Positions 1,103 to 37,485 of a DNA stretch of 64,000 nucleotides are shown piece by piece (within the stretch, counting starts at the first letter, position 1; every line of letters starts with the position of its first letter). The DNA is from Lachnospiraceae bacterium (lineage in GTDB: Bacteria > Bacillota > Clostridia > Lachnospirales > Lachnospiraceae), in contig CAAGPW010000167.1 of assembly GCA_900771955.1 (NCBI GenBank), forward strand, positions 15,951 through 79,950, read 5' to 3'. The notes below the pieces were generated by a model that was not told the DNA's origin, did not search any database, and worked only from the letters and a program-made list of their open reading frames with translations. The position numbers and the translations under genes were made by a program.

Positions 1103-2077
1103 ATGAAAATAAGTGTAATTATTACGACACACAATACGGAAAAGTATTTATTAAAATGCATGGATTCCATTATGAATCAAACTTTATCAGACATTGAAAT
1201 TATTATTGTAGATGATGCATCTACAGATGATACCCCCAAAACAGCTTCCCAACTGGCCTTGCGACACAAAAACATCAATTTTTTACCTCTATCTGCCAGT
1301 CTTGGTCCCGGGGGAGCAAGAAATAAAGCACTACAGCAGGCCACTGGAGAATACATATCTTTTATCGACAGCGATGACTGGATAGACTTAAATTATCTAG
1401 AGTTAATGTATAAGAAGGCACAAGAGGTAAATGCAGATATTGCTACTTGCAGTTTAATGCGTGAATACGATTATAATACAACTAATCCTATATATAAGTG
1501 TAAATATGATCAGACATATGTACTTTCTGGCGAAATCGCATTTCGTATTATGACAAACGAATATAATTATGGTATAAAATTTTTACCGTCAGCGTTGAAC
1601 AAAATATATCGGAAAACTTTTTTAACTGATAATTCATTAACATTCCCTGAACATATATTTTTTGAGGATCAGCCATTTTCATATAGCTGTACATTGGCTG
1701 CAAACAAAGTGGTCTGTGTTCCACATGTTGTTTATCACCATTATAAACGTTTAGGTTCTATTGTACAGTCATTTAGCAAAAAAAATATAGACGATATGAT
1801 GACTGCATATCAAATGATTAGAAATTACTTGAAAAGAAATAACGTTTATGAAAAATTCCGTTTTAACTATTATTCCTCTTTAGAACATTTTTATAATTTA
1901 ATTGTCCGACAAATATTTGAGTTTATCTCTGACGAAAATACTAAAAAAGATTATCTCAAATACTCTTTCAACCAATTAAAAAATGTTATTGATGTAGAAG
2001 AATATATCGATTTTTTATCTGCAGAAGAATTACGCAAACACATCCAGCCCAATATCACTGATACTACGATATATTAA
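1103..2077 (+). CDS. Family 2 glycosyltransferase (GT-A fold).
   Basis: N-terminus ISVIITTHNTEKYLLKCMDSIMNQTLSDIEIIIVDDASTDDT plus a DSDD (DxD) motif. RBS GAGGAGAA lies 7 nt upstream of the ATG at 1103 (the ORF track starts at the TTG at 1097). GC is very low (about 30%). Confidence 0.8.
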   Translation: MKISVIITTHNTEKYLLKCMDSIMNQTLSDIEIIIVDDASTDDTPKTASQLALRHKNINFLPLSASLGPGGARNKALQQATGEYISFIDSDDWIDLNYLELMYKKAQEVNADIATCSLMREYDYNTTNPIYKCKYDQTYVLSGEIAFRIMTNEYNYGIKFLPSALNKIYRKTFLTDNSLTFPEHIFFEDQPFSYSCTLAANKVVCVPHVVYHHYKRLGSIVQSFSKKNIDDMMTAYQMIRNYLKRNNVYEKFRFNYYSSLEHFYNLIVRQIFEFISDENTKKDYLKYSFNQLKNVIDVEEYIDFLSAEELRKHIQPNITDTTIY

Positions 2078-2088
2078 AAATAGTGTAT

Positions 2089-2123
2089 ATCCGCATGCTA
2101 TCGACTTAATATAGCATGCGGAT
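2089..2123. terminator. Bidirectional intrinsic terminator between the convergent GT2 and STAND genes.
   Basis: Perfect 13-bp stem atccgcatgctat / atagcatgcggat with a 9-nt loop. It has an A-rich 5' flank and a T-rich 3' flank. The stop codon of the minus-strand gene lies in the loop. Confidence 0.6.
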
Positions 2124-5100
2124 GTCTATATAGTATTTTTCTCTTTGAAGAGGATTTCCAATATAGAACTCCAAATTTTTTAGAGAGAATTCATATTGAC
2201 ATATGTATTTTTTATTATGTCTAATAATTGAAAGATATGTTTCCTTTTCAGAAAAAAATCCAGCTTCTCTTTCTAGTTCATTTAAAGCTGCCTCCTTTTT
2301 GTGATTATACAAGTGAACCAATGCTAAATAAGCTGCTTCAAAAGCAAGTTGGCGTGTTTTCATCGGTCTTTGTGTTTTCATATATTCCAATCTATATTGT
2401 TCACACAATGTTATTTCACCTTTGGATAACGCTAAAAGAGATGTCGCAAAAATGTGCCGGTTATAATCGTTGATAAAGTTTTCTTTTAAAATATTATTTG
2501 CTGCAATAACTTCACTAATATCAGAATCGTTGTTAACACAATCTAGGAATGTCACAGCGAACTTATACATATATTTGGTTTTGGTATCGCAATCCACCCT
2601 ATCTTCTACCATAGTATTAAATTTTCTAAGTAATTTTTCAGCCATCTGAAAATTATTTATCAGATTACATAAAAGCAATCTATACGTTGAAAACGGAATA
2701 TCCTTTTGGAAAAAATTCTCCTTTGCAGGAACTTTGTCCAAGCAATTAATTCCATTTTCGCTGTCAACAAACATCTTTACTGTATTTACAGCATATTTTA
2801 ACGATGGAAGGTCCCAATCAAACAGGATTATCCAATTATGTTGAATATTTGTTGGCATTTTATCAAAGCAAGCTATCTTTTCCAAAGCTTCCTGATATTT
2901 ATCATTCTCATAAAGTGAATTGATCATTTCCCATAATATGATGTAACGAATCTCCATCACAATATGCTCTGATACGAGCTTTGCCTCTGAATATAGTTTT
3001 TCAAATAAATCATATCCAGAAAAAGTGGTGCCTGCATTTGTATTTGCATATGTAAAATAAGCAAAAAATAGAAAATAATTTTGTATACTAATGTTCCTTT
3101 TAAACTGCTCTTTGGCAGATTCTGACAAAAAGATATTTTCCAAAATGTAATATATAGAATAATATTTTTGTTCAGCAAACAATTTTTGTATCTTGTTTAA
3201 TACATCCTCTATAGAGTCATCATCTCCACTTTTAAGTTCAAGTTGTAATTTTAAATGGTAAGCATCTTCAAAAGGAATATGTATGTCATTGTATGGTTTC
3301 AAAGTAAAATGGCTAATAAAAATCTCTCGATAGTATTCATGCCAACACACATAGAAATCATCATTATTCTTTCTTATCAATTCAGCATCTAATAGTAAAT
3401 CTAGCGTTTTTCTGGATTGTGGAATATCATGTAATAAGTTTCGTGATATTCCGGATCTGGTATAGTAAATACAAGAGCAAAGGGCTTCTGCATCCTCATT
3501 TTCTTTAAATATATTATTAAATTTAGATATTATTTCATTTTTTAAAAGTTCACAATGAACGAAAGATTGATATGCTAACTTAAAATCGCTGATACTTTTT
3601 ATGGAATCATTTAATGTTGTCAAATATTTCATAAAATACAATACTTCTATTACAGAACCAAAAAGTACTGTAATATGAGTTGTATCGAAATTAGTATACT
3701 TGTTAGTAAGAAGTGTGCGCATATCATCTTTTGTAACGGTTAACTCAACACTATCAAAAAATTGTCTTTTCCCAATTCTGTATTCTTCCAGTGAAATTTT
3801 CTGATGTGATGTCACAATACAAAAAATAGGATATTCACGACTTATTAATAGCCTAAGCATTTCCCTCAATACACCTTTATATTCTTTTGACAATTTTTGA
3901 ATATCATCCAAAATAATAATACGCGTATTTATGCATTTACTATCTAGGAAAATATCTCCCAATAGTTCTGGGTTTTGACTATATTTTACAAAATCATCAA
4001 TTTCCTTTGAGAAAAAAACAAAATCCCAAAATGTTTCTTTTAACTTCGGGAATTTTTTCCTCAAGTCATTTACATAGTTCAAATCTAAGTCTTCAAAATA
4101 TAAATAAGGAAAAAATAAATGAAATATAACTTTTTTGAGTACCTTTATGTCCTCTATTGTATCTCCTTTAAAAACATATATGTTACATAATATATCTTGT
4201 TTTTCTTCCATTAGCCTACTTATAAACAATTGTAGAACATATGATTTTCCGACCCCAGACTTTCCATATATTGAAGTTAATGAGAATATGCAATCAAGAT
4301 TTTTTCTGTAATCTAACAATTTACTGTATAACTGATCAACCACATTATCTTGGGAAGGAATGTCAAAAAACATATTTGCAGAATTTATAATTTTTATGGA
4401 TTGCGCCGGAATGATTTGTATTTTATTTTTATTTCTATTTTGTCCATTCTTATTTACTATTGAATATGTAATGGATATTGGCTGTAAAGTTTTATATTCA
4501 CCAAACGCATCCTTTTTTTGAATAGGTTCATATGTTAAATTCTCAGGTATAATGACATTAAAAATGAGGGGATTAATTCCTTTTTTTAGATGTAATTCCT
4601 TCGCATTTTCTGATATCAATTGAATATTATTCATGTCGGTCAATACGATATCTAAATCGCTTTGTACTGAAATTGAAAAACATATTTCATATTTAGCCCC
4701 AGTATATATAGTAGATAAGGGTTCTTGAAACAAATTATTTCCAAGGGTATAAAATGAAAGTTCTTCTATGCAATTAAATAGTGGTCTTTCTAATTTGTTA
4801 TATGTCTCTAAAGAACAAACAAACTTAGATTTGAAAAAAGCCTCTCCCTTATCCAAAATCCAATTTTCAAGGTGACTTTTGGTATAAAATTTCACCTCCC
4901 TGCAGCTATCAGAACATAATAGTGCTTCACGTATGTCAGCAATTGTTTTTGAAGCTATTTCTAAATTAGTCACAAAAATAATTTTTGAAATACCACGAGA
5001 TAAAATCGCACTTACAATAGTTGCATCCAGGCGATATCTACTTATTATTTTATTTTCAGAAGTATCAGTGGAATATTTAGCTTCCATCCACCAGACATCC

Positions 5101-12761: not shown

Positions 12762-15245
12762 CTATCCCCTATCACTTTTATCCCGCATTTTCCACTTTAC
12801 CCATGCAATCCAGCCGGCAATAACAACGCACAGGCCAATCCCGGCGACTACCAGCCACACAATACCTCCCGGCTGTTCTTCCGCCGCTTGTCCGGCGGGT
12901 TGTGAGGTGTCCTGTTTGTGGCCTATCACGATAGTATCCTCCGGTCTCTCTGTCGCCTTTGGCTCTTCAGATGCTGTTTCCGCTGGTTCCTTCGTTGCCG
13001 CTGGCCCTTTTGTCGTACTGGGAGTCTCTGTGGCCGCTGGCATTTTCATCGCGCTAGGTGTCTCCGTACTCGTTGGTGCTTTTGTCGCACTAGGTGTCTC
13101 CGTTGCTGCAGGTTCTTTCGTCGCACTAGGTGTCTCCGTTGCTGCAGGCGCTTTCGTCGCACTGGGCGTCTCCGTTGCTGCAGGCGCCTTCGTCGCACTG
13201 GGCGTCTCCGTTGCTGCAGGCGCTTTCGTCGCACTGGGCGTCTCTGTGGCCGCTGGCTCGTTTGTTACAGCAGGAACCCCCGTTGTCTCCGGTTCTTTCG
13301 TTGTACCGGGCGCTTCCGTCACCGCTGGAGCCTCTGTGGCCGTCGGTTCTTTCGTCTCTGTCGGGTTTTCCGCAGATCTCGTTACGGTGAATTCTGCTTC
13401 GGCAACTCCACCTGCAGATACGATACCAACAACATGCTTTCCATCGGCTAATGTCGCAATACATTCCGGTAACAAATGAACAATAATGCTCCCGGATTCC
13501 ACAGTATAATCCGCATCACGGACAAGTTCTTTCCCGTCCAGTTCTACGCGGATAAAATCATCAAATGCTGCATCCGACCGAAAAGTAGCTGTTTCGGCAT
13601 TTGCCGCATCAATCTGAGCACCCTCGCCCTCAATAATACTTGGCGCTGTTTTGGGAATAGATGTCCCCTTCTGTAATTCCTTGCCGCAGTCCTTACAGTA
13701 CAAGTCACCGGTATACCCGTTTTCCGTACTGTTTGGTTCCTTTCTGTCTCTCAGCTCCGTATTTTTATGATTGTCCGGATCCACATCCCCGTAGGCCTGC
13801 TGGCACACGGAGCAGATGGCTCTGGCGATGCAGGTAGCCTCTCCACCAGTATGAACATGCTCTTCTCCGATTCCCTTTATTTCAAAAGTCAGCACATTAT
13901 CCGCAATCTCCGTTACTGTAATGCTGATCTTCTCTGTGATTAATATATCTTCACCGGCCGCCAGTGCCGCATCATTTTTCGTGGCATGCTCTCCACCCAG
14001 AACCTCATAATTCCATCTGGGAGCACTGAAATTCATATTGCTGGGGAATTTTGTGTTGCTATCTACCAAATAGCATACCAGCCCTGATTTCAGAAAAATT
14101 GCATCCACCCGGGATTCGTTGGCCTTATACAGATTCTTTATCTGCGAATCATAATTATTTCCTGTCTCCGTGAAATTTCTGTATTCAAGATACAGTGTCT
14201 TGTCTTTTCCCGGAACATCCATCTTATACCCTGTAGCAAGAGAATTACCGCCGGTTCCCAATGCTGCCAGTCTATAATTTCCATCCGCTGCAAGCACAGG
14301 CAGATCCTCAGCATTGATCCATCCCAATGCCTCCTGTTCTTTCACCGAAATAAACTGCGGTACCGGAGAGATCGGCTTTGCCATAACCGACATAAAGTAT
14401 ACCGGAGAAGCATTCGCGGAATTATACAGATCCTTCAGTCCCATAATATGTCCTGTTTCATGGATCACTGTTCCCAGAGATATGAGGACATTTCCCGTTT
14501 TATCCTTATACAAATAACCATTCGTATCTCCGTCTCCCTTTGCATAGGAGTTCGTCAGTTGGACATAGTTTGCGCTTGTCAGCGTGACAGAGCCTGTATT
14601 TATTGTGACATAGTTCGCATAATCCTTATAATTCCACAGTGGCGAAGCCCAGCTCACCGAAATATTGCTTTGCGTCGTATTTTTATAAATAATTGTGATA
14701 GCATCTATAATGCCGTCTCCATTCTTATCCAGATCCGCATAGCTGTATTCCCGGGTTCCATCATAATTGGTGATCCTGTTTCCAGCAGCTATCGCATCAT
14801 TAATGGCCTTGGACCAGTCTAGTTTTAAGTCGTACATACGGCCATATTGTTCGACATTGCCCTGATATCCGAGGGTATTATCCGCACTATACTCCGCATA
14901 ATACCCTCTGGGATGAGACAGTGTCAATGAACCGCCTCCCGCAAACAGGTATACACTGTTCATGCGTAATTTTCCCGATGATACCGACTGGAAATAATCA
15001 GCCACATTATAACCCGCTGTATTGTAGGAATTGTCCGTAATCTTACGCACGGTGGTGTCTTCATATACATTATCTATAAATTCGTCTTCCCCGGAAAACT
15101 TTACAAAGACGATCAGGTTGGTAAAATTGCTTTCTGTCGAAACCGCTGTCGGCTCAACCTCCGCCGCCCGACTTATAAATGGTTCATTAAAAAATGTATT
15201 TGCTGCCAATACAAGCAGCAGTATCTTACAAAGTATCTTTTTCAT
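12762..15245 (-). CDS. Secreted zinc metalloprotease (HExxH zincin) with a Thr/Pro/Ala-rich repeat stalk and a C-terminal transmembrane anchor.
   Basis: Signal peptide MKKILCKILLLVLAANTF. Active-site motif VIHETGHIMGLKDLY. Multiple copies of PSATKAPAATET. C-terminal hydrophobic segment IVWLVVAGIGLCVVIAGWIAWV followed by KWKMRDK. Confidence 0.65.
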   Translation of the reverse strand: MKKILCKILLLVLAANTFFNEPFISRAAEVEPTAVSTESNFTNLIVFVKFSGEDEFIDNVYEDTTVRKITDNSYNTAGYNVADYFQSVSSGKLRMNSVYLFAGGGSLTLSHPRGYYAEYSADNTLGYQGNVEQYGRMYDLKLDWSKAINDAIAAGNRITNYDGTREYSYADLDKNGDGIIDAITIIYKNTTQSNISVSWASPLWNYKDYANYVTINTGSVTLTSANYVQLTNSYAKGDGDTNGYLYKDKTGNVLISLGTVIHETGHIMGLKDLYNSANASPVYFMSVMAKPISPVPQFISVKEQEALGWINAEDLPVLAADGNYRLAALGTGGNSLATGYKMDVPGKDKTLYLEYRNFTETGNNYDSQIKNLYKANESRVDAIFLKSGLVCYLVDSNTKFPSNMNFSAPRWNYEVLGGEHATKNDAALAAGEDILITEKISITVTEIADNVLTFEIKGIGEEHVHTGGEATCIARAICSVCQQAYGDVDPDNHKNTELRDRKEPNSTENGYTGDLYCKDCGKELQKGTSIPKTAPSIIEGEGAQIDAANAETATFRSDAAFDDFIRVELDGKELVRDADYTVESGSIIVHLLPECIATLADGKHVVGIVSAGGVAEAEFTVTRSAENPTETKEPTATEAPAVTEAPGTTKEPETTGVPAVTNEPAATETPSATKAPAATETPSATKAPAATETPSATKAPAATETPSATKEPAATETPSATKAPTSTETPSAMKMPAATETPSTTKGPAATKEPAETASEEPKATERPEDTIVIGHKQDTSQPAGQAAEEQPGGIVWLVVAGIGLCVVIAGWIAWVKWKMRDKSDRG
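13030..13270. repeat. Tandem in-frame 36-bp coding repeats (about 6 copies) encoding the TP-rich linker of the metalloprotease.
   Basis: Repeating unit ctaggtgtctccgttgctgcaggcgctttcgtcgca is seen directly. Confidence 0.7.
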
Positions 15246-15263
15246 CGTCCAACACCTTATCAA

Positions 15264-15620
15264 TAATATACTGCGGACGCCCCTTCACTTCAAAATTCAT
15301 TTTTCCAATATACAGGGCGATCACTGCCAGATTTATCACAATAATATCCGTAAACAGAAATCCCAGTGCCACCATAGCATATACAACGGTTTTATGCTGA
15401 ATGCTGTAACACCGTCTGTGGCCAGATGAAGCATTTTAGACATATTGTATTTTGAATATCCCGCCGCTCTTTCATGCCCTTCAAAGTAAACATAATCATG
15501 CTGGTATCCCAGAGAAGGAAATATCCCTCGCATAAAAATACTCTGCTCCTTGTATTTCCGCAACTCTTTCAATACCGGGTTGGCGACTTTCAAGATAACC
15601 GATATCACGTTTGATGTATG
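15264..15620 (-). pseudogene. 3' remnant of a GtrB-like polyprenyl-phosphate glycosyltransferase (GT2).
   Basis: The frame encodes YVYFEGHERAAGYSKYNMSKMLHLATDGVTAFSIKPLY, which matches the conserved C-terminal region of GtrB/ArnC-type enzymes. There is no intact N-terminal GT domain. It abuts the IS remnant. Confidence 0.4.
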
Positions 15621-16151
15621 CTAACTGTTTACGAATGATTGCTCTGATTTTCTTAGTGCTGCGTTTCTTTGCTTTCGCAAGTGCAAGGTAGTTCTTTCTG
15701 GCTTGCCTGCGATACATACGTGGTCTTGAAAATCCATAACTTTTACAGAAACGGATGATGATAGTCTCCAGTTTTTCTCTGGCTTCATTGAGCAATGAGA
15801 AATCCTGTTCAGGTTCTGTTTTTGATTCGCCATCTCCTAATACGGATTTTCAGTCAATTGATCCACCAATTCTCTGTCAGAATACTGATACTTGGTTTGG
15901 ATGATTAGCGAACCAAGGGCAAGACGCAGAGTTTTTGCAACGCGTCCATTCTTTCCTTTGAACAGACGGGAGTATTTCTTTTCGAATATTTCCCATGGGA
16001 TGTCATCTTCCATCTTTACCCATCTGTTTTCAGGATTCATATGAAGCCCTATTGGCTGGTTAAAACTGAGGAAGTTGCTTTGTGTATTATCAGTACATTT
16101 ATACATTGATTTTTCACTCCTGTAAGGGTACTTTTCTATAGAAAACTGCAC
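15496..16151 (-). mobile_element. Fragmented IS1182/IS5-superfamily transposase, degraded into 3 or more ORF pieces.
   Basis: The N-terminal piece PIGLHMNPENRWVKMEDDIPWEIFEKKYSRLFKGKNGRVAKTLRLALGSLIIQTKYQYSDRELVDQLTENPY is a typical DUF772 transposase N-terminus. The downstream pieces are out of frame. Confidence 0.6.
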
Positions 16152-16389
16152 GTAAAAAGATTTGATTACTTATAAAACCGTGCACTTTATTATATCATTT
16201 TCGAGTGAAAAATGCAGTAAAATCAATGGTTTCAAGCTGTTTTTCTATTAATCAGCAGACACTAATTAGATTATTTAAGGCTCATTTTTTGAAACATAGC
16301 GACAGTTATGTTTATTTCTTGCGTTCATTTTTACGTCCAAGAATAATATTTACTTTTCAAAGTTCAATGCCAGAGTTTTACTGGCATGA

Positions 16390-16602
16390 TCACTCAAGAT
16401 TCCGAGAGATCATTGCATTATTCGTATGGAAAATATGCGCACCATACTTGTGGAAATTGATGCCTTCTATCTTCTCTGTATAGATATTTCCCGCAATGTT
16501 TGGCCTCTTATCGATGACCAGAACAGACTTTCCGTGCGCCTTCGCCTGCTACGCAAATGTAGCTCCGTATAAGCCAGAGCCAACCACTAAATAATCATAC
16601 AT
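16390..16602 (-). pseudogene. glf: 5' fragment of UDP-galactopyranose mutase (glf) with an in-frame TAG at codon 18 and a truncation.
   Basis: Manual translation gives MYDYLVVGSGLYGATFA*QAKAHGKSVLVIDKRPNIAGNIYTEKIEGINFHKYGAHIFHTNN. The intact glf at 36367 reads MKYDYVIVGSGLFGAVFAHEAKTVGKKILVIDKRPHIGGNIYTERIEGINVHKYGAHIFHTNN. Confidence 0.6.
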
Positions 16603-16618
16603 ACCTAACGCCTCATTT

Positions 16619-17662
16619 CTATATTTCTATCATCCGCTTGACCCCGGGAATGCGCTTCATAACAGTGCATGCTACGGCGCTTATAACCAGAATGCCAACA
16701 AAAAAGGCAATGGATGCTGCAACAGTATCTATTGTAAAAACAAAATTTGTCACTTTCAAAATTAACGGATGTACAATGTAAACACCCATTGTTATCGGTG
16801 CAATCTGTTTGATCACAGTTACCGCTCTTGCCCTAAGTTCAAGCCTCATCATGAAAGCAAACAGAACAATAACCCACGCCAATGTCAAAATATCGTCGTA
16901 GAAATACTCTGCATACAAATTGTGAAGAACAAAACGCCCCATAAAATTTTGATATATTACAACCATTCCTGTTACAGCAATCAGTAAAAATCCATGCTGA
17001 CGCACCGTAATCTTCTTGAGAAAAGTCTTACGCTCTGACAGCAATCCTCCTAAGAGAAAATATTGAATCCAAGTCCACACCCGGAACGTCTGGATAAAGT
17101 ATTTCTGGACAGGCTCTCCGCAAATATAGGATGCGATTTGAAAACCAAATCCGACGGTAAGGCAAACAGCCCAGACCAATTTTGTTTTATTCTGTAGCTT
17201 AAACAGTAATGTCAAAACCGCATAGAGAATCATCAGAGCACCAAGATACCAGAACTGCCATAAGGGTCCCTTTTGCAACAGACTCTTAGCGACAATGATT
17301 GGAAAGTCCAAAAAAGAGGCAAGTTCAAGCTGTCCTTTTCGAATATCAACAAGTAATTCCGCAGCATATATCACTAATGACCACAGCAACACAATGCGAA
17401 AAATCGAGACAATCTTTTTTATCGCATAGGAAATCGTTGCGTCGTTTCTTTGTAGCAGCACATATCCGCTACACATGAAAAACACTGGAACAGCGAAGCC
17501 GCAGCAGTAATACAATGTCAAATTAATAGCAGATAAATCCTTCTGTAGCGTGTGCAAGCCAACCACAGCAATACATGCGATAATCTTAAGAAGGTCAAGG
17601 TTATAGTTTCTGCTTGCTAACAGATTGTCGCTCACTGCCTCATGTGTGTCAATAGATACCAT
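16619..17662 (-). CDS. Acyltransferase family 3 membrane protein (polysaccharide O-acyltransferase).
   Basis: N-terminus NLDLLKIIACIAVVGLHTL and about 10 TM helices. RBS AAGGAGG upstream. Confidence 0.7.
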   Translation of the reverse strand: MVSIDTHEAVSDNLLASRNYNLDLLKIIACIAVVGLHTLQKDLSAINLTLYYCCGFAVPVFFMCSGYVLLQRNDATISYAIKKIVSIFRIVLLWSLVIYAAELLVDIRKGQLELASFLDFPIIVAKSLLQKGPLWQFWYLGALMILYAVLTLLFKLQNKTKLVWAVCLTVGFGFQIASYICGEPVQKYFIQTFRVWTWIQYFLLGGLLSERKTFLKKITVRQHGFLLIAVTGMVVIYQNFMGRFVLHNLYAEYFYDDILTLAWVIVLFAFMMRLELRARAVTVIKQIAPITMGVYIVHPLILKVTNFVFTIDTVAASIAFFVGILVISAVACTVMKRIPGVKRMIEI

Positions 17663-17828
17663 TAGAATTTTCCTCCTTGTCTATTCCTTCAACTTCTACA
17701 CCTGATCCGTCTTTATCGTGAAACTTGTCCGAGGTGCTTATTTTCCAATCCTTGTAAATATATTAATACACAGCCTATATTACTGTTATATTTGTGTTGT
17801 TCTGTAACCTTAATATGTATAAATGCTT

Positions 17829-18203
17829 TTAGCATTTCCATAATCCATGCAGGTTACAATATGCATATACTTCTTCTACCTGTTCACCATCGCAAAGACA
17901 AAAATCTGCTACCGGCTCCTGCCCTGGATTTAACTGTTTTCTGTATATTCCCTGGTTTGTATTTAATGTAATCCACTCAATGAAATGCTCTTCAAGCATT
18001 GGATGTTTTGTCTCTCCGACCACGACATGAACATGACTGCCTTCTATCGTATATACAGGTATATGCTTCTCAACAGCAGCATCTGTCACTCCGGCTTTTA
18101 ATTCCTGCATAGGTTCTCCACAACAGATTACAGGTACACCCTTATCCTTTACCTTTTCAACAATGTTTCCACAATGCTTACAAATATAATACCTTACTTC
18201 CAT
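17829..18203 (-). CDS. dfx: Desulfoferrodoxin (superoxide reductase).
   Basis: N-terminal desulforedoxin Cys cluster CKHCGN...VICCGEPM. C-terminal neelaredoxin-like HxH...C region. Confidence 0.8.
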   Translation of the reverse strand: MEVRYYICKHCGNIVEKVKDKGVPVICCGEPMQELKAGVTDAAVEKHIPVYTIEGSHVHVVVGETKHPMLEEHFIEWITLNTNQGIYRKQLNPGQEPVADFCLCDGEQVEEVYAYCNLHGLWKC

Positions 18204-30504: not shown

Positions 30505-31455
30505 ATGAAAAAGATCAGTATACTTATCCCCTGCTATAACGAAGAGGATAATGTAGTTCCTATGAGTGAAGCTATTGTGAATCTGTTTACCACAGAATTA
30601 AAGGCTTATGATTATGAGCTTCTGTTTATAGACAATGATTCACATGACAATACCAGACCGTTATTGCGTGAAATCTGTGCGAAAAATCCTAAGATTAAGG
30701 CCATTTTTAATGCGAAAAATTTCGGTCAGTTCAATTCTCCCTATTATGGAATCCTGCAAACCACAGGTGACTGCACTATCTCCATGGTATGTGATTTTCA
30801 GGATCCCATCGAGCTGATCCCTCAATACATTAAAGAATGGGAAAACGGCTATAAAATCGTTATAGGAATCAAAACCAGCAGCAAAGAGAATCCGATCATG
30901 TATCATTTGCGTGGTTTATATTATAAATTCATCAAGAAATTCTCGGACGTAGAACAGATTGAGCACTTTACCGGATCCGGATTGTACGACAAAGATTTTG
31001 TGGAAGTCCTGCGGAATCTCAAAGATCCTACTCCGTTTTTGCGTGGCATCGTAGCTGAACTTGGCTATCGCAGAAAAGAAATTCCTTATGAACAGCCTAA
31101 GCGCCGGGCAGGAAAAACGCACAACAACTTTTACAGCTTGTATGATGCTGCAATGCTCAGCATTACCTCATATACCAAGATTGGATTGCGTTTGTGTACC
31201 TTCTTCGGTGTAATCTGTGGAACTGCCAGTGTTATTATTGGTTTGATTTATCTGATTATGAAACTGATAAAATGGAATTCGTTTGCTCCCGGAATGGCAC
31301 CTGTGTTGATAGGAATGTTTTTCCTTGGAGCCATACAGTTATTTTTCATTGGTTTTATTGGGGAATATATTTTGAGTATTAACCAGAGAGTGATGAACAG
31401 ACCATTGGTTATTGAAGAAGAACGGATTAATTTCAAGGAGAAACATCATGGATAA
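30505..31455 (+). CDS. GtrB-like polyprenyl-phosphate glycosyltransferase (GT2 with two C-terminal TM helices).
   Basis: MKKISILIPCYNEEDNV and FIDNDSHDNT. C-terminal TM pair. RBS AAGGAGAA upstream of the ATG at 30505. Confidence 0.75.
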   Translation: MKKISILIPCYNEEDNVVPMSEAIVNLFTTELKAYDYELLFIDNDSHDNTRPLLREICAKNPKIKAIFNAKNFGQFNSPYYGILQTTGDCTISMVCDFQDPIELIPQYIKEWENGYKIVIGIKTSSKENPIMYHLRGLYYKFIKKFSDVEQIEHFTGSGLYDKDFVEVLRNLKDPTPFLRGIVAELGYRRKEIPYEQPKRRAGKTHNNFYSLYDAAMLSITSYTKIGLRLCTFFGVICGTASVIIGLIYLIMKLIKWNSFAPGMAPVLIGMFFLGAIQLFFIGFIGEYILSINQRVMNRPLVIEEERINFKEKHHG

Positions 31456-34664: not shown

Positions 34665-36349
34665 CATTACAGCAGTATATTAAAGATGCATATTATTCAA
34701 TTAAAAAATTACTAAATGTTTTTTTTGTATTTTCAGCAGCTATTATGAGTTTTATTATGACTCTCAATTATTCCGTTTTTATAGAATATAATGGAACCAC
34801 TGGTATATCATACAATGTGCAACCTTTCTTTGCTGTAGCTGCTGCAATAATTACGTTGCCTTTATATCTATACCTTATAATAAAAAAGAACTTTGTAGAA
34901 TCATTAGAATTTGATAAATCACCTTGTATTTTTTTTGTTTCAGGTGCTGAAGCTGTTTTACTAATGTATCAAATGTTACAAGATACTTTTAAAAATATGT
35001 CTTCTATTATGCTATCTATTCATCTTGATTCAAATTTGTATCAGAATTTTTGCTATAATGTACTAACTTTATTATGTATTGTATCAGTATTGGCTTTATT
35101 TATATTTTCTTTTTATGTAAATAAATTATTATTCTGTTTTATAAAAGAGTATTGTCAAAAAGCTGATATTTATGAAAAAATATTCTTTGGAGTTGGAATT
35201 TCCATTTGTCTTTCTCTTATTTGTGTATTTTATACAAAAAGTAATGCTTTATGGTCTTCCTTGGATTTAGTTTATCAAACCGATTCTATGCTTGTATATG
35301 ACCATTATTACCCTGTCTTTACTTATGGTTATGACTTTGACTGGGACATTGGAATTGGCGGAATCAGGCATCCGTTAGCCACTTTTTTACTATATCCAAT
35401 TAATTTAATCGTAGTATTTTTATCAAATATGCTGTTCTGGATTCCAAATATTAGACCAATTTTATTTGCTTTATTCCAATCAATTATGTTAATTATAACA
35501 GTTATTACATTAAAACGTATTGTCAAAAGTAATTGGGTCTACTTTATTTTTACTGCTTCTTTTCCTTTTTTATTTTTTACTATTTTTATCGAAAAATATC
35601 AAATTGCCGTTTTGCTAATTGTAATGTTTGTATATGTAAAGCTTACGGATGATAGGAAAGAACTTCACGATTATTTTCTAATAGCTGCAAGCGGTATGAT
35701 GATAACATCTGCAATATATGGTTTATTCTGTGGTAACATAAATAAACTGAAAGAAAAAATTATAGAATATTTTAGAATCTTCTTTCTTTTCATACTCACA
35801 TTAATTGGAACTGGGCGAATAAATTACTTGATTAATTTCAGATATTTGTTAAATCAAAATTCCGTCATGTTTTATAAGGATTTGCATACTAAAATATCTT
35901 ACGCCGAAAGATTTAATGGTTTTACAAATTTAATTGCTTCAAGTTTTATTCCTGTTCAATATGAGGTAATGGGCGAACAAGGTAATCAGCTATACTGGCC
36001 TCACTTAATAGATAAAATAAATATATTAGGCTTATTAGTATTCCTTTTTATTATTGTAACAATTTTTTGCATGCGAAAAGAAAAAAATGTGCAACTTTTA
36101 TCTTTATGGTTCATATTTGCATTTGTCCAATTTATAATTACAGGTTTTGGCTCTAATTGCGAACCCTTATTTTCTCTTTATTTTTCTTGGGCAATAGTTG
36201 CTCTTTTAATTATAGGTATCAATCATTTTGTTAAAAAACCTATTTTGCAAGTTGTTTTGTACGGTTCGTTACTATGCGGAATGTGCTATACAAACTTTAC
36301 ACATATTACGTTTTTACTACAATTTCTTATTGAGAAAGCACCATTATAA
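34661..36349 (+). CDS. Polytopic membrane protein, putative Wzy-type polymerase.
   Basis: 562 aa, more than 12 TM helices, extremely AT-rich (about 28% GC). Lies between the flippase and glf. Confidence 0.45.
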   Translation: MTLQQYIKDAYYSIKKLLNVFFVFSAAIMSFIMTLNYSVFIEYNGTTGISYNVQPFFAVAAAIITLPLYLYLIIKKNFVESLEFDKSPCIFFVSGAEAVLLMYQMLQDTFKNMSSIMLSIHLDSNLYQNFCYNVLTLLCIVSVLALFIFSFYVNKLLFCFIKEYCQKADIYEKIFFGVGISICLSLICVFYTKSNALWSSLDLVYQTDSMLVYDHYYPVFTYGYDFDWDIGIGGIRHPLATFLLYPINLIVVFLSNMLFWIPNIRPILFALFQSIMLIITVITLKRIVKSNWVYFIFTASFPFLFFTIFIEKYQIAVLLIVMFVYVKLTDDRKELHDYFLIAASGMMITSAIYGLFCGNINKLKEKIIEYFRIFFLFILTLIGTGRINYLINFRYLLNQNSVMFYKDLHTKISYAERFNGFTNLIASSFIPVQYEVMGEQGNQLYWPHLIDKINILGLLVFLFIIVTIFCMRKEKNVQLLSLWFIFAFVQFIITGFGSNCEPLFSLYFSWAIVALLIIGINHFVKKPILQVVLYGSLLCGMCYTNFTHITFLLQFLIEKAPL

Positions 36350-36366: not shown

Positions 36367-37485
36367 ATGAAATACGATTATGTTATAGTAGGAAGTGGTT
36401 TATTCGGAGCAGTATTTGCTCACGAAGCCAAAACTGTCGGCAAAAAAATTTTAGTTATTGATAAGCGTCCTCATATCGGCGGAAATATATACACGGAACG
36501 TATTGAGGGCATTAATGTCCACAAGTATGGCGCACACATTTTCCATACAAATAATCACACAGTATGGAATTACGTGAATAATTTTGCAAATTTCAATCGT
36601 TTCACCAATTCACCTGTTGCAAATTATAAAGGCGAACTGTATTCCCTCCCATTTAATATGTACACCTTTAACAAGATGTGGGGAGTTATCACCCCCGATG
36701 AGGCGGCTGCTAAAATTAACGAGCAACGCGCTGAAATCATCGGCATTCCGTCCAATCTGGAAGAACAGGCTATTTCTCTTGTAGGACGCGATATTTTTGA
36801 AAAATTGATCAAAGGCTACACTGAGAAACAATGGGGCCGGGATTGCAAAGATCTCCCCCCCTTTATTATCAAACGTCTGCCTGTACGCCTGACATTTGAT
36901 AATAATTATTTTAACGCACTTTATCAGGGAATTCCTATCGGTGGGTATACGCATTTGGTGGAAAACCTGTTAAAGGGTATCGAGGTTCAACTTAATACCG
37001 ATTATTTTGACAACAGAAATCAATTTGACGAGATAGCTGATAAAATCATTTACACGGGGCCTATAGACGCTTTCTTTGAATATCGTTTAGGTGCACTTGA
37101 ATATCGCTCCGTCCGCTTTGAAAATACGCTGTTAGATCAATCCAATTTTCAGGGAAATGCCGCTGTAAATTACACGGACAGAGAAACTCCCTGGACAAGA
37201 ATTATTGAGCATAAATGGTTTGAATTCGGCAAAGATGAAAACGGAAATGATTTAACCAAGACAGTTATCAGCAAAGAATACAGCTCTGAGTGGAAAATAG
37301 GCGATGAGCCATACTATCCTGTCAATGATGAAAAAAATACAGAACGATATCAAAAATACAAACAACTTGCACTGCAAAAAAAGAATATTATTTTTGGCGG
37401 ACGTTTAGGCGAGTATAAATATTATGATATGGATGCCGTTATTGCCGCTGCATTGGATTTATGTGCCCGAGAACTACATTGCTAA
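36367..37485 (+). CDS. glf: UDP-galactopyranose mutase.
   Basis: MKYDYVIVGSGLFGAVFAHE FAD motif. Canonical Glf throughout. Confidence 0.9.
   Translation: MKYDYVIVGSGLFGAVFAHEAKTVGKKILVIDKRPHIGGNIYTERIEGINVHKYGAHIFHTNNHTVWNYVNNFANFNRFTNSPVANYKGELYSLPFNMYTFNKMWGVITPDEAAAKINEQRAEIIGIPSNLEEQAISLVGRDIFEKLIKGYTEKQWGRDCKDLPPFIIKRLPVRLTFDNNYFNALYQGIPIGGYTHLVENLLKGIEVQLNTDYFDNRNQFDEIADKIIYTGPIDAFFEYRLGALEYRSVRFENTLLDQSNFQGNAAVNYTDRETPWTRIIEHKWFEFGKDENGNDLTKTVISKEYSSEWKIGDEPYYPVNDEKNTERYQKYKQLALQKKNIIFGGRLGEYKYYDMDAVIAAALDLCARELHC

Follow-up and report, generated by a model that had tools for sequence, protein, structure and literature searches.

Remnants of a glf and a GT2 gene linked by relics of two mobile elements in a Lachnospiraceae bacterium

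Within the 64-kb stretch of Lachnospiraceae bacterium DNA analysed here (the window, whose first letter is position 1), a segment of ~1.4 kb consists of stumps of two genes for sugar pathways, with what is left of two mobile elements between them. This raises the questions of how such wreckage arose and whether any part of it still works. A sequence-only reading had seen in it the scar of an IS-mediated deletion or inactivation in an older or alternative polysaccharide locus, with an IS1182-family element that had since decayed. We find it very probable that the segment is non-functional DNA lying between the tail of an old polysaccharide cluster (...wzx-acyltransferase-glf) and a GT2-protease pair, and that it was produced by insertions followed by ordinary deletions.

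Layout of the segment and authenticity of its sequence

All features of the segment lie on the minus strand between two intact genes (Table 1). The start at 15264 given by the sequence-only reading is too far inside, since the glycosyltransferase remnant (GT2') reaches 15226. No working enzyme or transposase can be encoded by 15226-16602. Homology to the polysaccharide locus of L030 starts only at 17752, so that the acyltransferase gene and the glf remnant (glf') together look like an orphaned locus tail. The desulfoferrodoxin gene just beyond is out of place amid sugar genes.

Table 1. Features of the segment and its flanks in window coordinates
Feature	Position	Strand	Basis
Desulfoferrodoxin gene, between manC and the acyltransferase gene	17829-18203	-	
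Acyltransferase-3 gene, intact, 347 aa	16619-17662	-	Pfam PF01757, E=3e-36
glf', codons 1-62 of a UDP-galactopyranose mutase gene	16417-16602	-	tblastn and TIGR00031
In-frame TAG at glf' codon 18	16549-16551	-	sequence read
Remnant of element X, one end, last ~112-120 bp	16297-16416	-	96-99% identity to L032, L033, L034
31-bp stretch ending in CTAA	16266-16296	-	without match in the loci compared
IS5-family remnant, 679 bp	15587-16265	-	DNA identity to L004-L011 and family profile
GT2', 3' part (~40%) of a GtrB/PgfS-like GT2 gene	15226-15586	-	NF047588, P0121, L028/L036 alignment
M6-like zinc metalloprotease/surface protein gene, intact, 827 aa	12762-15245	-	TIGR03296, E=1.5e-13

Elsewhere the window holds a second, complete polysaccharide locus (24.5-37.5 kb), which ends in glf. 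Two patches, at 2000-5000 and 35000-36000, have a markedly low GC content of 0.27-0.31, as against about 0.45-0.5 in the rest. A 1068-aa ORF falls in one of them, and the second sits within the plus-strand polysaccharide locus. Low GC is typical of horizontally acquired or wzy-type genes. An Rfam scan of 14500-17800 gave a chance-level match only (Ysr206, E=0.09) and no known RNA in the spacer, and a scan for promoters and terminators returned counts equal to those expected from shuffled sequence.

Because the source is metagenomic, and repeats such as IS are frequent sites of mis-joining, we considered whether the genes might be intact in the real genome and broken only by assembly or sequencing; a contig in the Logan assembly moreover stops at 16385, within X. 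Against such an artefact, the segment is 100% identical over 7 kb, including all junctions, in two ENA metagenome assemblies, and the Logan assembly is identical as far as its contig reaches and carries the TAG, the reads behind all of these being possibly the same or overlapping. Base-calling errors cannot account for five separate deletions together with the loss of >80% of glf and >50% of the GT2 gene, and both a sibling strain and L030 have comparable but different scars (see below). An artefact is thus extremely improbable. We did not keep the Logan contig end as a sign of a repeat boundary, because strain polymorphism would end a contig likewise.

The two gene stumps and their neighbours

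The 5' fragment of glf, with its stop at codon 18, is as the sequence-only reading had described it. The fragment holds 62 of ~370 codons, with about 310 missing, and its protein is 77% identical to the product of the intact glf at 36367-37485 (tblastn E=6e-31). Residues 1-66 match positions 1-67 of TIGR00031 (E=2e-23) as well as PF13450 (E=5e-18), so what is left is the FAD-binding N-terminus only, in which the Rossmann motif GxGxxG and glf-specific sequence are present; a search of glf' for PF03275, the GLF catalytic/substrate domain, gave no match. With a score of 82.8 bits against a TIGR00031 cut-off of 303.75, glf' is a pseudogene fragment without function as Glf. The later frameshift that had also been proposed is not there: the homology runs out after codon 62, where the terminus of X lies. 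In L030 and L031 the orthologous codon 18 is CAG (Gln). Immediately upstream of glf', the acyltransferase gene itself ends in TAG, which rules out TAG as a sense codon and makes the one in glf' a genuine stop in this host.

How old is this inactivation? Compared with the full-length glf of L031, glf' retains 60 of 62 residues at 80% DNA identity and with synonymous sites saturated, which places its inactivation as recent relative to the divergence from L031 and means that the gene was under purifying selection for most of its history. Its neighbour, with dN/dS = 0.22 against the 88% identical L030 orthologue, looks functional and is the only intact gene left of the module. The intact genes at 36367-37485 and 30505-31455, which had been taken for intact versions of the two stumps, are not copies of them. 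At the DNA level glf' and the intact window glf agree at 68% over 61 aligned codons (75% over a local 102-bp BLAST match), which makes them old paralogues or xenologues and not a recent duplicate, and the product of the GT2 gene at 30505-31455 is 30% identical to GT2' over 56 residues and is best regarded as a distant paralogue within the same broad family.

The start of glf lies closely 3' of an acyltransferase homologue in L012, L014, L016, L017, L018, L021, L030 and L031. The gap is within about 20 bp in Clostridia loci (11-17 bp in those from the genome collection) and about 100-180 bp in L021 and L018. Both L031 (65% identity, full glf) and L030 (88%) have the order wzx-acyltransferase-glf; acyltransferase-glf is a conserved terminal gene pair, seen in loci of Clostridia, Streptococcus and Gemella. 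The acyltransferase homologues in the genome collection, from Clostridia, Lachnospiraceae, Streptococcus and Gemella, have 31-47% identity; the search of that collection found none closer than 47% and no same-species reference with an intact locus.

At the other end of the segment, GT2' is the C-terminal part of a GtrB-type GT2, in keeping with the sequence-only reading. Two stretches of the 308-position PgfS model NF047588 are recognisable in it, 163-230 (E=4e-9) and 270-304 (E=9e-7), and the ArnC model picks up its tail (E=3.6e-4); its scores lie far below the family cut-offs. Its best relative, P0121, is 57% identical (E=1e-45). With GtrB/PgfS/ArnC-type enzymes GT2' has in common the C-terminal sequence that follows the GT-A fold, and the last transmembrane helix, but it differs from them in having neither the catalytic domain nor the first of the two transmembrane helices: a search of GT2' for PF00535, the GT-A catalytic domain, gave no match, and GT2' aligns to the profile only from position 163 (of 308) onward. 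When its DNA is aligned with that of L028 and L036, an 82-nt deletion appears at 15367|15366, and this single event explains both the missing first helix and the shift of frame.

Protein searches with GT2' returned four matches only, with no clean full-length close orthologue among them, and the closest relatives (P0121/L036 and P0122/P0123) are themselves split or truncated. In L036 (818-1746, a JGI metagenome contig, 57% identical to GT2') the gene is split into ORFs of 148 and 155 aa, which is either another pseudogene or a sequencing error. L028 and L029 carry another truncated GT2 tail, in a different arrangement and from a more distant relative.

Downstream, the ATG of the protease gene (15245) overlaps the GT2' stop codon (15228-15226) by 20 nt, so the GT2 gene and the protease gene were probably once co-transcribed; a regulatory side-effect of the remnants on the protease gene is possible. 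Besides a signal peptide and a C-terminal membrane anchor, the M6-like protease has an HETGH zinc motif and 12-residue Thr/Pro/Ala-rich tandem repeats (TETPSATKAPAA) in a long run at about 12950-13260.

Remains of two mobile elements between the stumps

The DNA directly beyond glf' belongs to an element that we call X. A search with an exact 26-mer of the spacer led to three metagenome contigs from the human gut (L032, L033 and L034), to which the window is 99% identical over 16297-16414 (L032 and L034) and 96% identical over 16303-16427 (L033), with no further match between these contigs and the rest of the window. Full copies of X are non-coding and 435-539 bp in length, with terminal inverted repeats of 16-17 nt at their borders (AATAATCTCTCGGAAT / ATTCCGAGAGATCATT). 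They sit between polysaccharide-synthesis genes, in at least two distinct gene contexts besides that of the window. Being short, non-coding, bounded by inverted repeats and present at several sites, X has the traits of a MITE, and it is apparently an undescribed, MITE-like element. Pfam and NCBIfam scans of an ORF-like stretch within it gave only IS1182 at E=0.2 and a spurious lectin match, and with nothing beyond the former the idea that X is a transposase remnant was not upheld.

In the window, the terminal inverted repeat of X (ATGATCTCTCGGAATCTTGAG, 16413-16393) directly abuts codon 62 of glf', which makes X, and not the IS, the proximate cause of the glf truncation. The second end of X was sought across the 64-kb window and was not found. 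The window copy appears to carry the 121-nt internal deletion junction of the L032/L034 type, as judged from 6 nt. We also observed that X lies just downstream of a polysaccharide gene, in the window orientation, in three copies, L032 and L034 looking like the same locus and the number being too small to weigh. The 31 bp that follow (16296-16266) match nothing in any locus compared.

Beyond these 31 bp lies the broken transposase gene that the sequence-only reading had noticed, with pieces in two frames matching positions 4-79 (E=4e-24) and 156-231 (E=3e-11) of the IS5-family model NF033578. The family it had been assigned to was another one, IS1182. To place it, we used a full-length transposase reconstructed from close relatives (P0002 and the second ORF of L006), which reached 419 bits with the IS5 model, well over its cutoff of 275, whereas the IS1182 model NF033551, with a cutoff of 270, gave it 61 bits. 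IS1182 is thereby ruled out, the comparison having been made with the reconstructed protein of the element family. IS copies in L004-L011 have 96-99% DNA identity to the remnant.

The L011 copy has terminal inverted repeats of 18-21 nt (TTAGTGCCTGCTGATTAA / TTAATCAGCAGACACTAA) and a 4-bp ATAA duplication, and since it has an 86-nt deletion, the complete element should be about 1.65 kb long. Of these about 1,650 bp the window holds the left 941, minus 257 nt deleted internally: 190 nt at 15838|15837 and 67 nt at about 15808|15807, the latter with 2-nt microhomology. The left inverted repeat is present (16265-16248), with the transposase start codon at 16105 and, just before the repeat, CTAA as a candidate target half-site. 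The remnant stops abruptly at 15587, inside the transposase gene. Its junction with GT2' (15587|15586) shows no more than 1-2 nt of microhomology, and the ~700 bp that would make up its right part, with the DDE domain and the right inverted repeat, are gone. Thus, of the inverted repeats and target duplication that would mark a complete insertion, the left repeat and a candidate half-site can be pointed to, while no second repeat was found within the 64-kb window. Having one end only, the remnant cannot move. Like other IS5-family elements of the NF033578 type (DUF772 plus DDE_Tnp_1_2) it has the N-terminal DUF772 region, but unlike mobile members it has neither the DDE domain nor the right repeat and is a dead fragment.

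L004-L010 (for example L006:2026-3465) contain, in at least two genomic contexts, an IS5 derivative that has lost 181 nt internally and whose protein (P0120, 187 aa) is frame-shifted, which suggests that the derivative is non-autonomous and was mobilised in trans. The 190-nt deletion of the window copy has its left breakpoint in common with this 181-nt deletion, and since copies at other sites share that breakpoint, the window IS was probably already defective on arrival. It would then have lost 9 more nt after insertion. The view that the IS decayed in place therefore holds only in part.

Turnover in related loci and a possible order of events

Comparison with relatives brings out how unstable this neighbourhood is. 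In a sibling strain (L025-L027) the protease gene is 99.8% identical at the DNA level from window position 15345 onward, and yet L025 is without 18211-15346, that is, the desulfoferrodoxin gene, the acyltransferase gene, glf', the X and IS remnants and most of GT2'. In their place it has about 190 bp that include another MITE-like element (terminal inverted repeat GGATATTCCG), and manC on the far side is only 95% identical. The missing segment and the step in identity indicate turnover of the neighbourhood among closely related strains and recombination across the junction. A remnant of the desulfoferrodoxin gene was sought in L025 after manC, and the alignment was unconvincing.

This second MITE-like element has terminal repeats GGATATTCCG...CGGAATATCC and was seen at L025:605-695 and L006:3466-3757. 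It is about 92 bp long in L025, exactly at the manC/GT2' junction, and 288 bp long in L006, where it replaces the right inverted repeat of the IS5 copy; a search of the window for it found no paired copy.

L030, which is 88% identical at the DNA level to the acyltransferase-glf' module, has a full polysaccharide cluster upstream; there glf breaks off at codon 52 against the end of another element, one with ACTTAAAACTGACCC repeats (L030:11072-11406). This is an independent truncation of the same glf lineage. The proposal of a non-functional scar in a polysaccharide-gene neighbourhood that turns over between strains is borne out by these comparisons of synteny, L025 being without the segment and L030 being cut differently. 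The identity and extent of the fragments, the positions of their junctions and the variation from strain to strain are direct observations.

In a rabbit-gut Clostridia MAG (L014:9959-17290), an acyltransferase homologue is followed by a 101-codon glf stump, and this partial glf and a full glf bracket a 4.8-kb cassette with genes for a LicD-like protein, an IspD-like cytidylyltransferase, two RpiB-like isomerases and a TPP enzyme; an IS110 transposase follows the full glf. Loci of Gemella and S. mitis (L019, L020 and L024) have, immediately upstream of the acyltransferase homologue, short glf fragments that cover about codons 3-77 in two frames, and these echo the fragmented glf reported in S. 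mitis cps loci.

Streptococcal cps loci have the terminal order Wzx-acetyltransferase-Glf, with fragmented glf and transposase remnants at the edge, and such fragments are read as the degradation of once-complete loci together with horizontal exchange, some loci being down to a few genes (PMC5111408). The 3' ends of cps loci in S. pneumoniae, S. mitis and S. oralis (PMC5111408) thus resemble the present segment in their flippase-acyl/acetyltransferase-glf order, glf fragments and partial transposases. They differ in the host, here a gut Clostridia/Lachnospiraceae-like bacterium, in the elements, here of the IS5 family and an unnamed MITE-like type as against IS1167/IS1381/RUP, and in the flank, here a GT2-protease pair as against aliA.

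Is the IS itself responsible for the deletion, as the sequence-only reading had supposed? Had the visible IS catalysed an adjacent deletion between glf and GT2 and decayed later, its remnant would lie between both stumps, as it does, and an abundance of IS elements is known from polysaccharide loci (PMC5111408). The junctions, however, are of the wrong kind. The left end of the IS (16265) is parted from glf' by the 31 bp and 120 bp of X, the glf stump abutting X about 150 bp from that end, and on the GT2 side the break falls midway along the transposase gene. An adjacent deletion mediated by an IS has a complete IS terminus at its endpoint. Since neither stump abuts an intact IS5 end, transposase-catalysed deletion by the visible IS is not supported; and as its main internal deletion is common to copies elsewhere, the window copy probably never encoded a transposase at this site. 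We regard such a deletion as quite improbable. The GT2 stump joined to the middle of a transposase gene is instead the signature of an ordinary deletion that took the right half of the IS along with the 5' half of GT2.

The L014 structure, with its 101-codon glf stump and full glf around a cassette, brings up another origin for the glf stump, namely as the by-product of a recombinational cassette exchange through glf homology. The step from 95% to 99.8% identity in L025 likewise speaks of recombination nearby, and the window does contain a second complete locus ending in glf. Yet the stump ends precisely at the terminus of a transposable element and not at a homology crossover, and the intact glf lies 20 kb away on the opposite strand and, at only 68% DNA identity, is too diverged to have served as a recombination partner, which leaves exchange of this kind very improbable. 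A broader proposal starts from the fact that glf is truncated at codon 62 in the window, 52 in L030 and 101 in L014, and that S. mitis and Gemella have it in fragments. The acyltransferase-glf pair might then be a recurrent site of landing or breakage, and X a polysaccharide-locus-associated element that drives or regulates switching of galactofuranose decoration in gut Firmicutes; we consider this unlikely.

The explanation that we favour, of insertions followed by ordinary deletions, can be set out as a sequence of steps. The small MITE-like element X would have interrupted the terminal glf at codon 62/63, and an IS5-family element, probably already defective, would have landed nearby. Non-homologous deletions would next have taken away what remained of glf, the greater part of X, the IS from its middle rightward, the DNA between and the 5' 160 codons of GT2; after them would have come deletions of smaller size (9, 67 and 82 nt) and a single change from CAG to TAG. 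The tally would be at least three larger non-homologous deletions, three small ones and one nonsense mutation, a pattern typical of the deletion-biased decay of unselected DNA. We infer the order of these events, and their neutrality, from the junctions and from comparison with relatives, among which no strain was found with the ancestral arrangement intact from full glf to full GT2; the number of events and what was lost between the stumps are likewise reconstructed. The stumps probably survive because they adjoin genes that are kept, the acyltransferase and protease genes, deletions into which would be selected against.

For annotation, the four short ORFs of the segment (104, 99, 90 and 49 aa) are pseudogene or IS fragments and not genes, and the GT2 and glf stumps are not to be counted as pathway capacity. 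Decay at the edges is already well known for the capsule loci of streptococci, and the segment described here belongs with them, although its genome is of the gut Clostridia type and its elements differ. It adds one more documented case of insertion by mobile elements, together with deletion, causing erosion and turnover at the edges of polysaccharide loci in gut Clostridia, and the acyltransferase-glf pair, together with the GT2'-protease flank, could anchor the comparison of such loci between strains.
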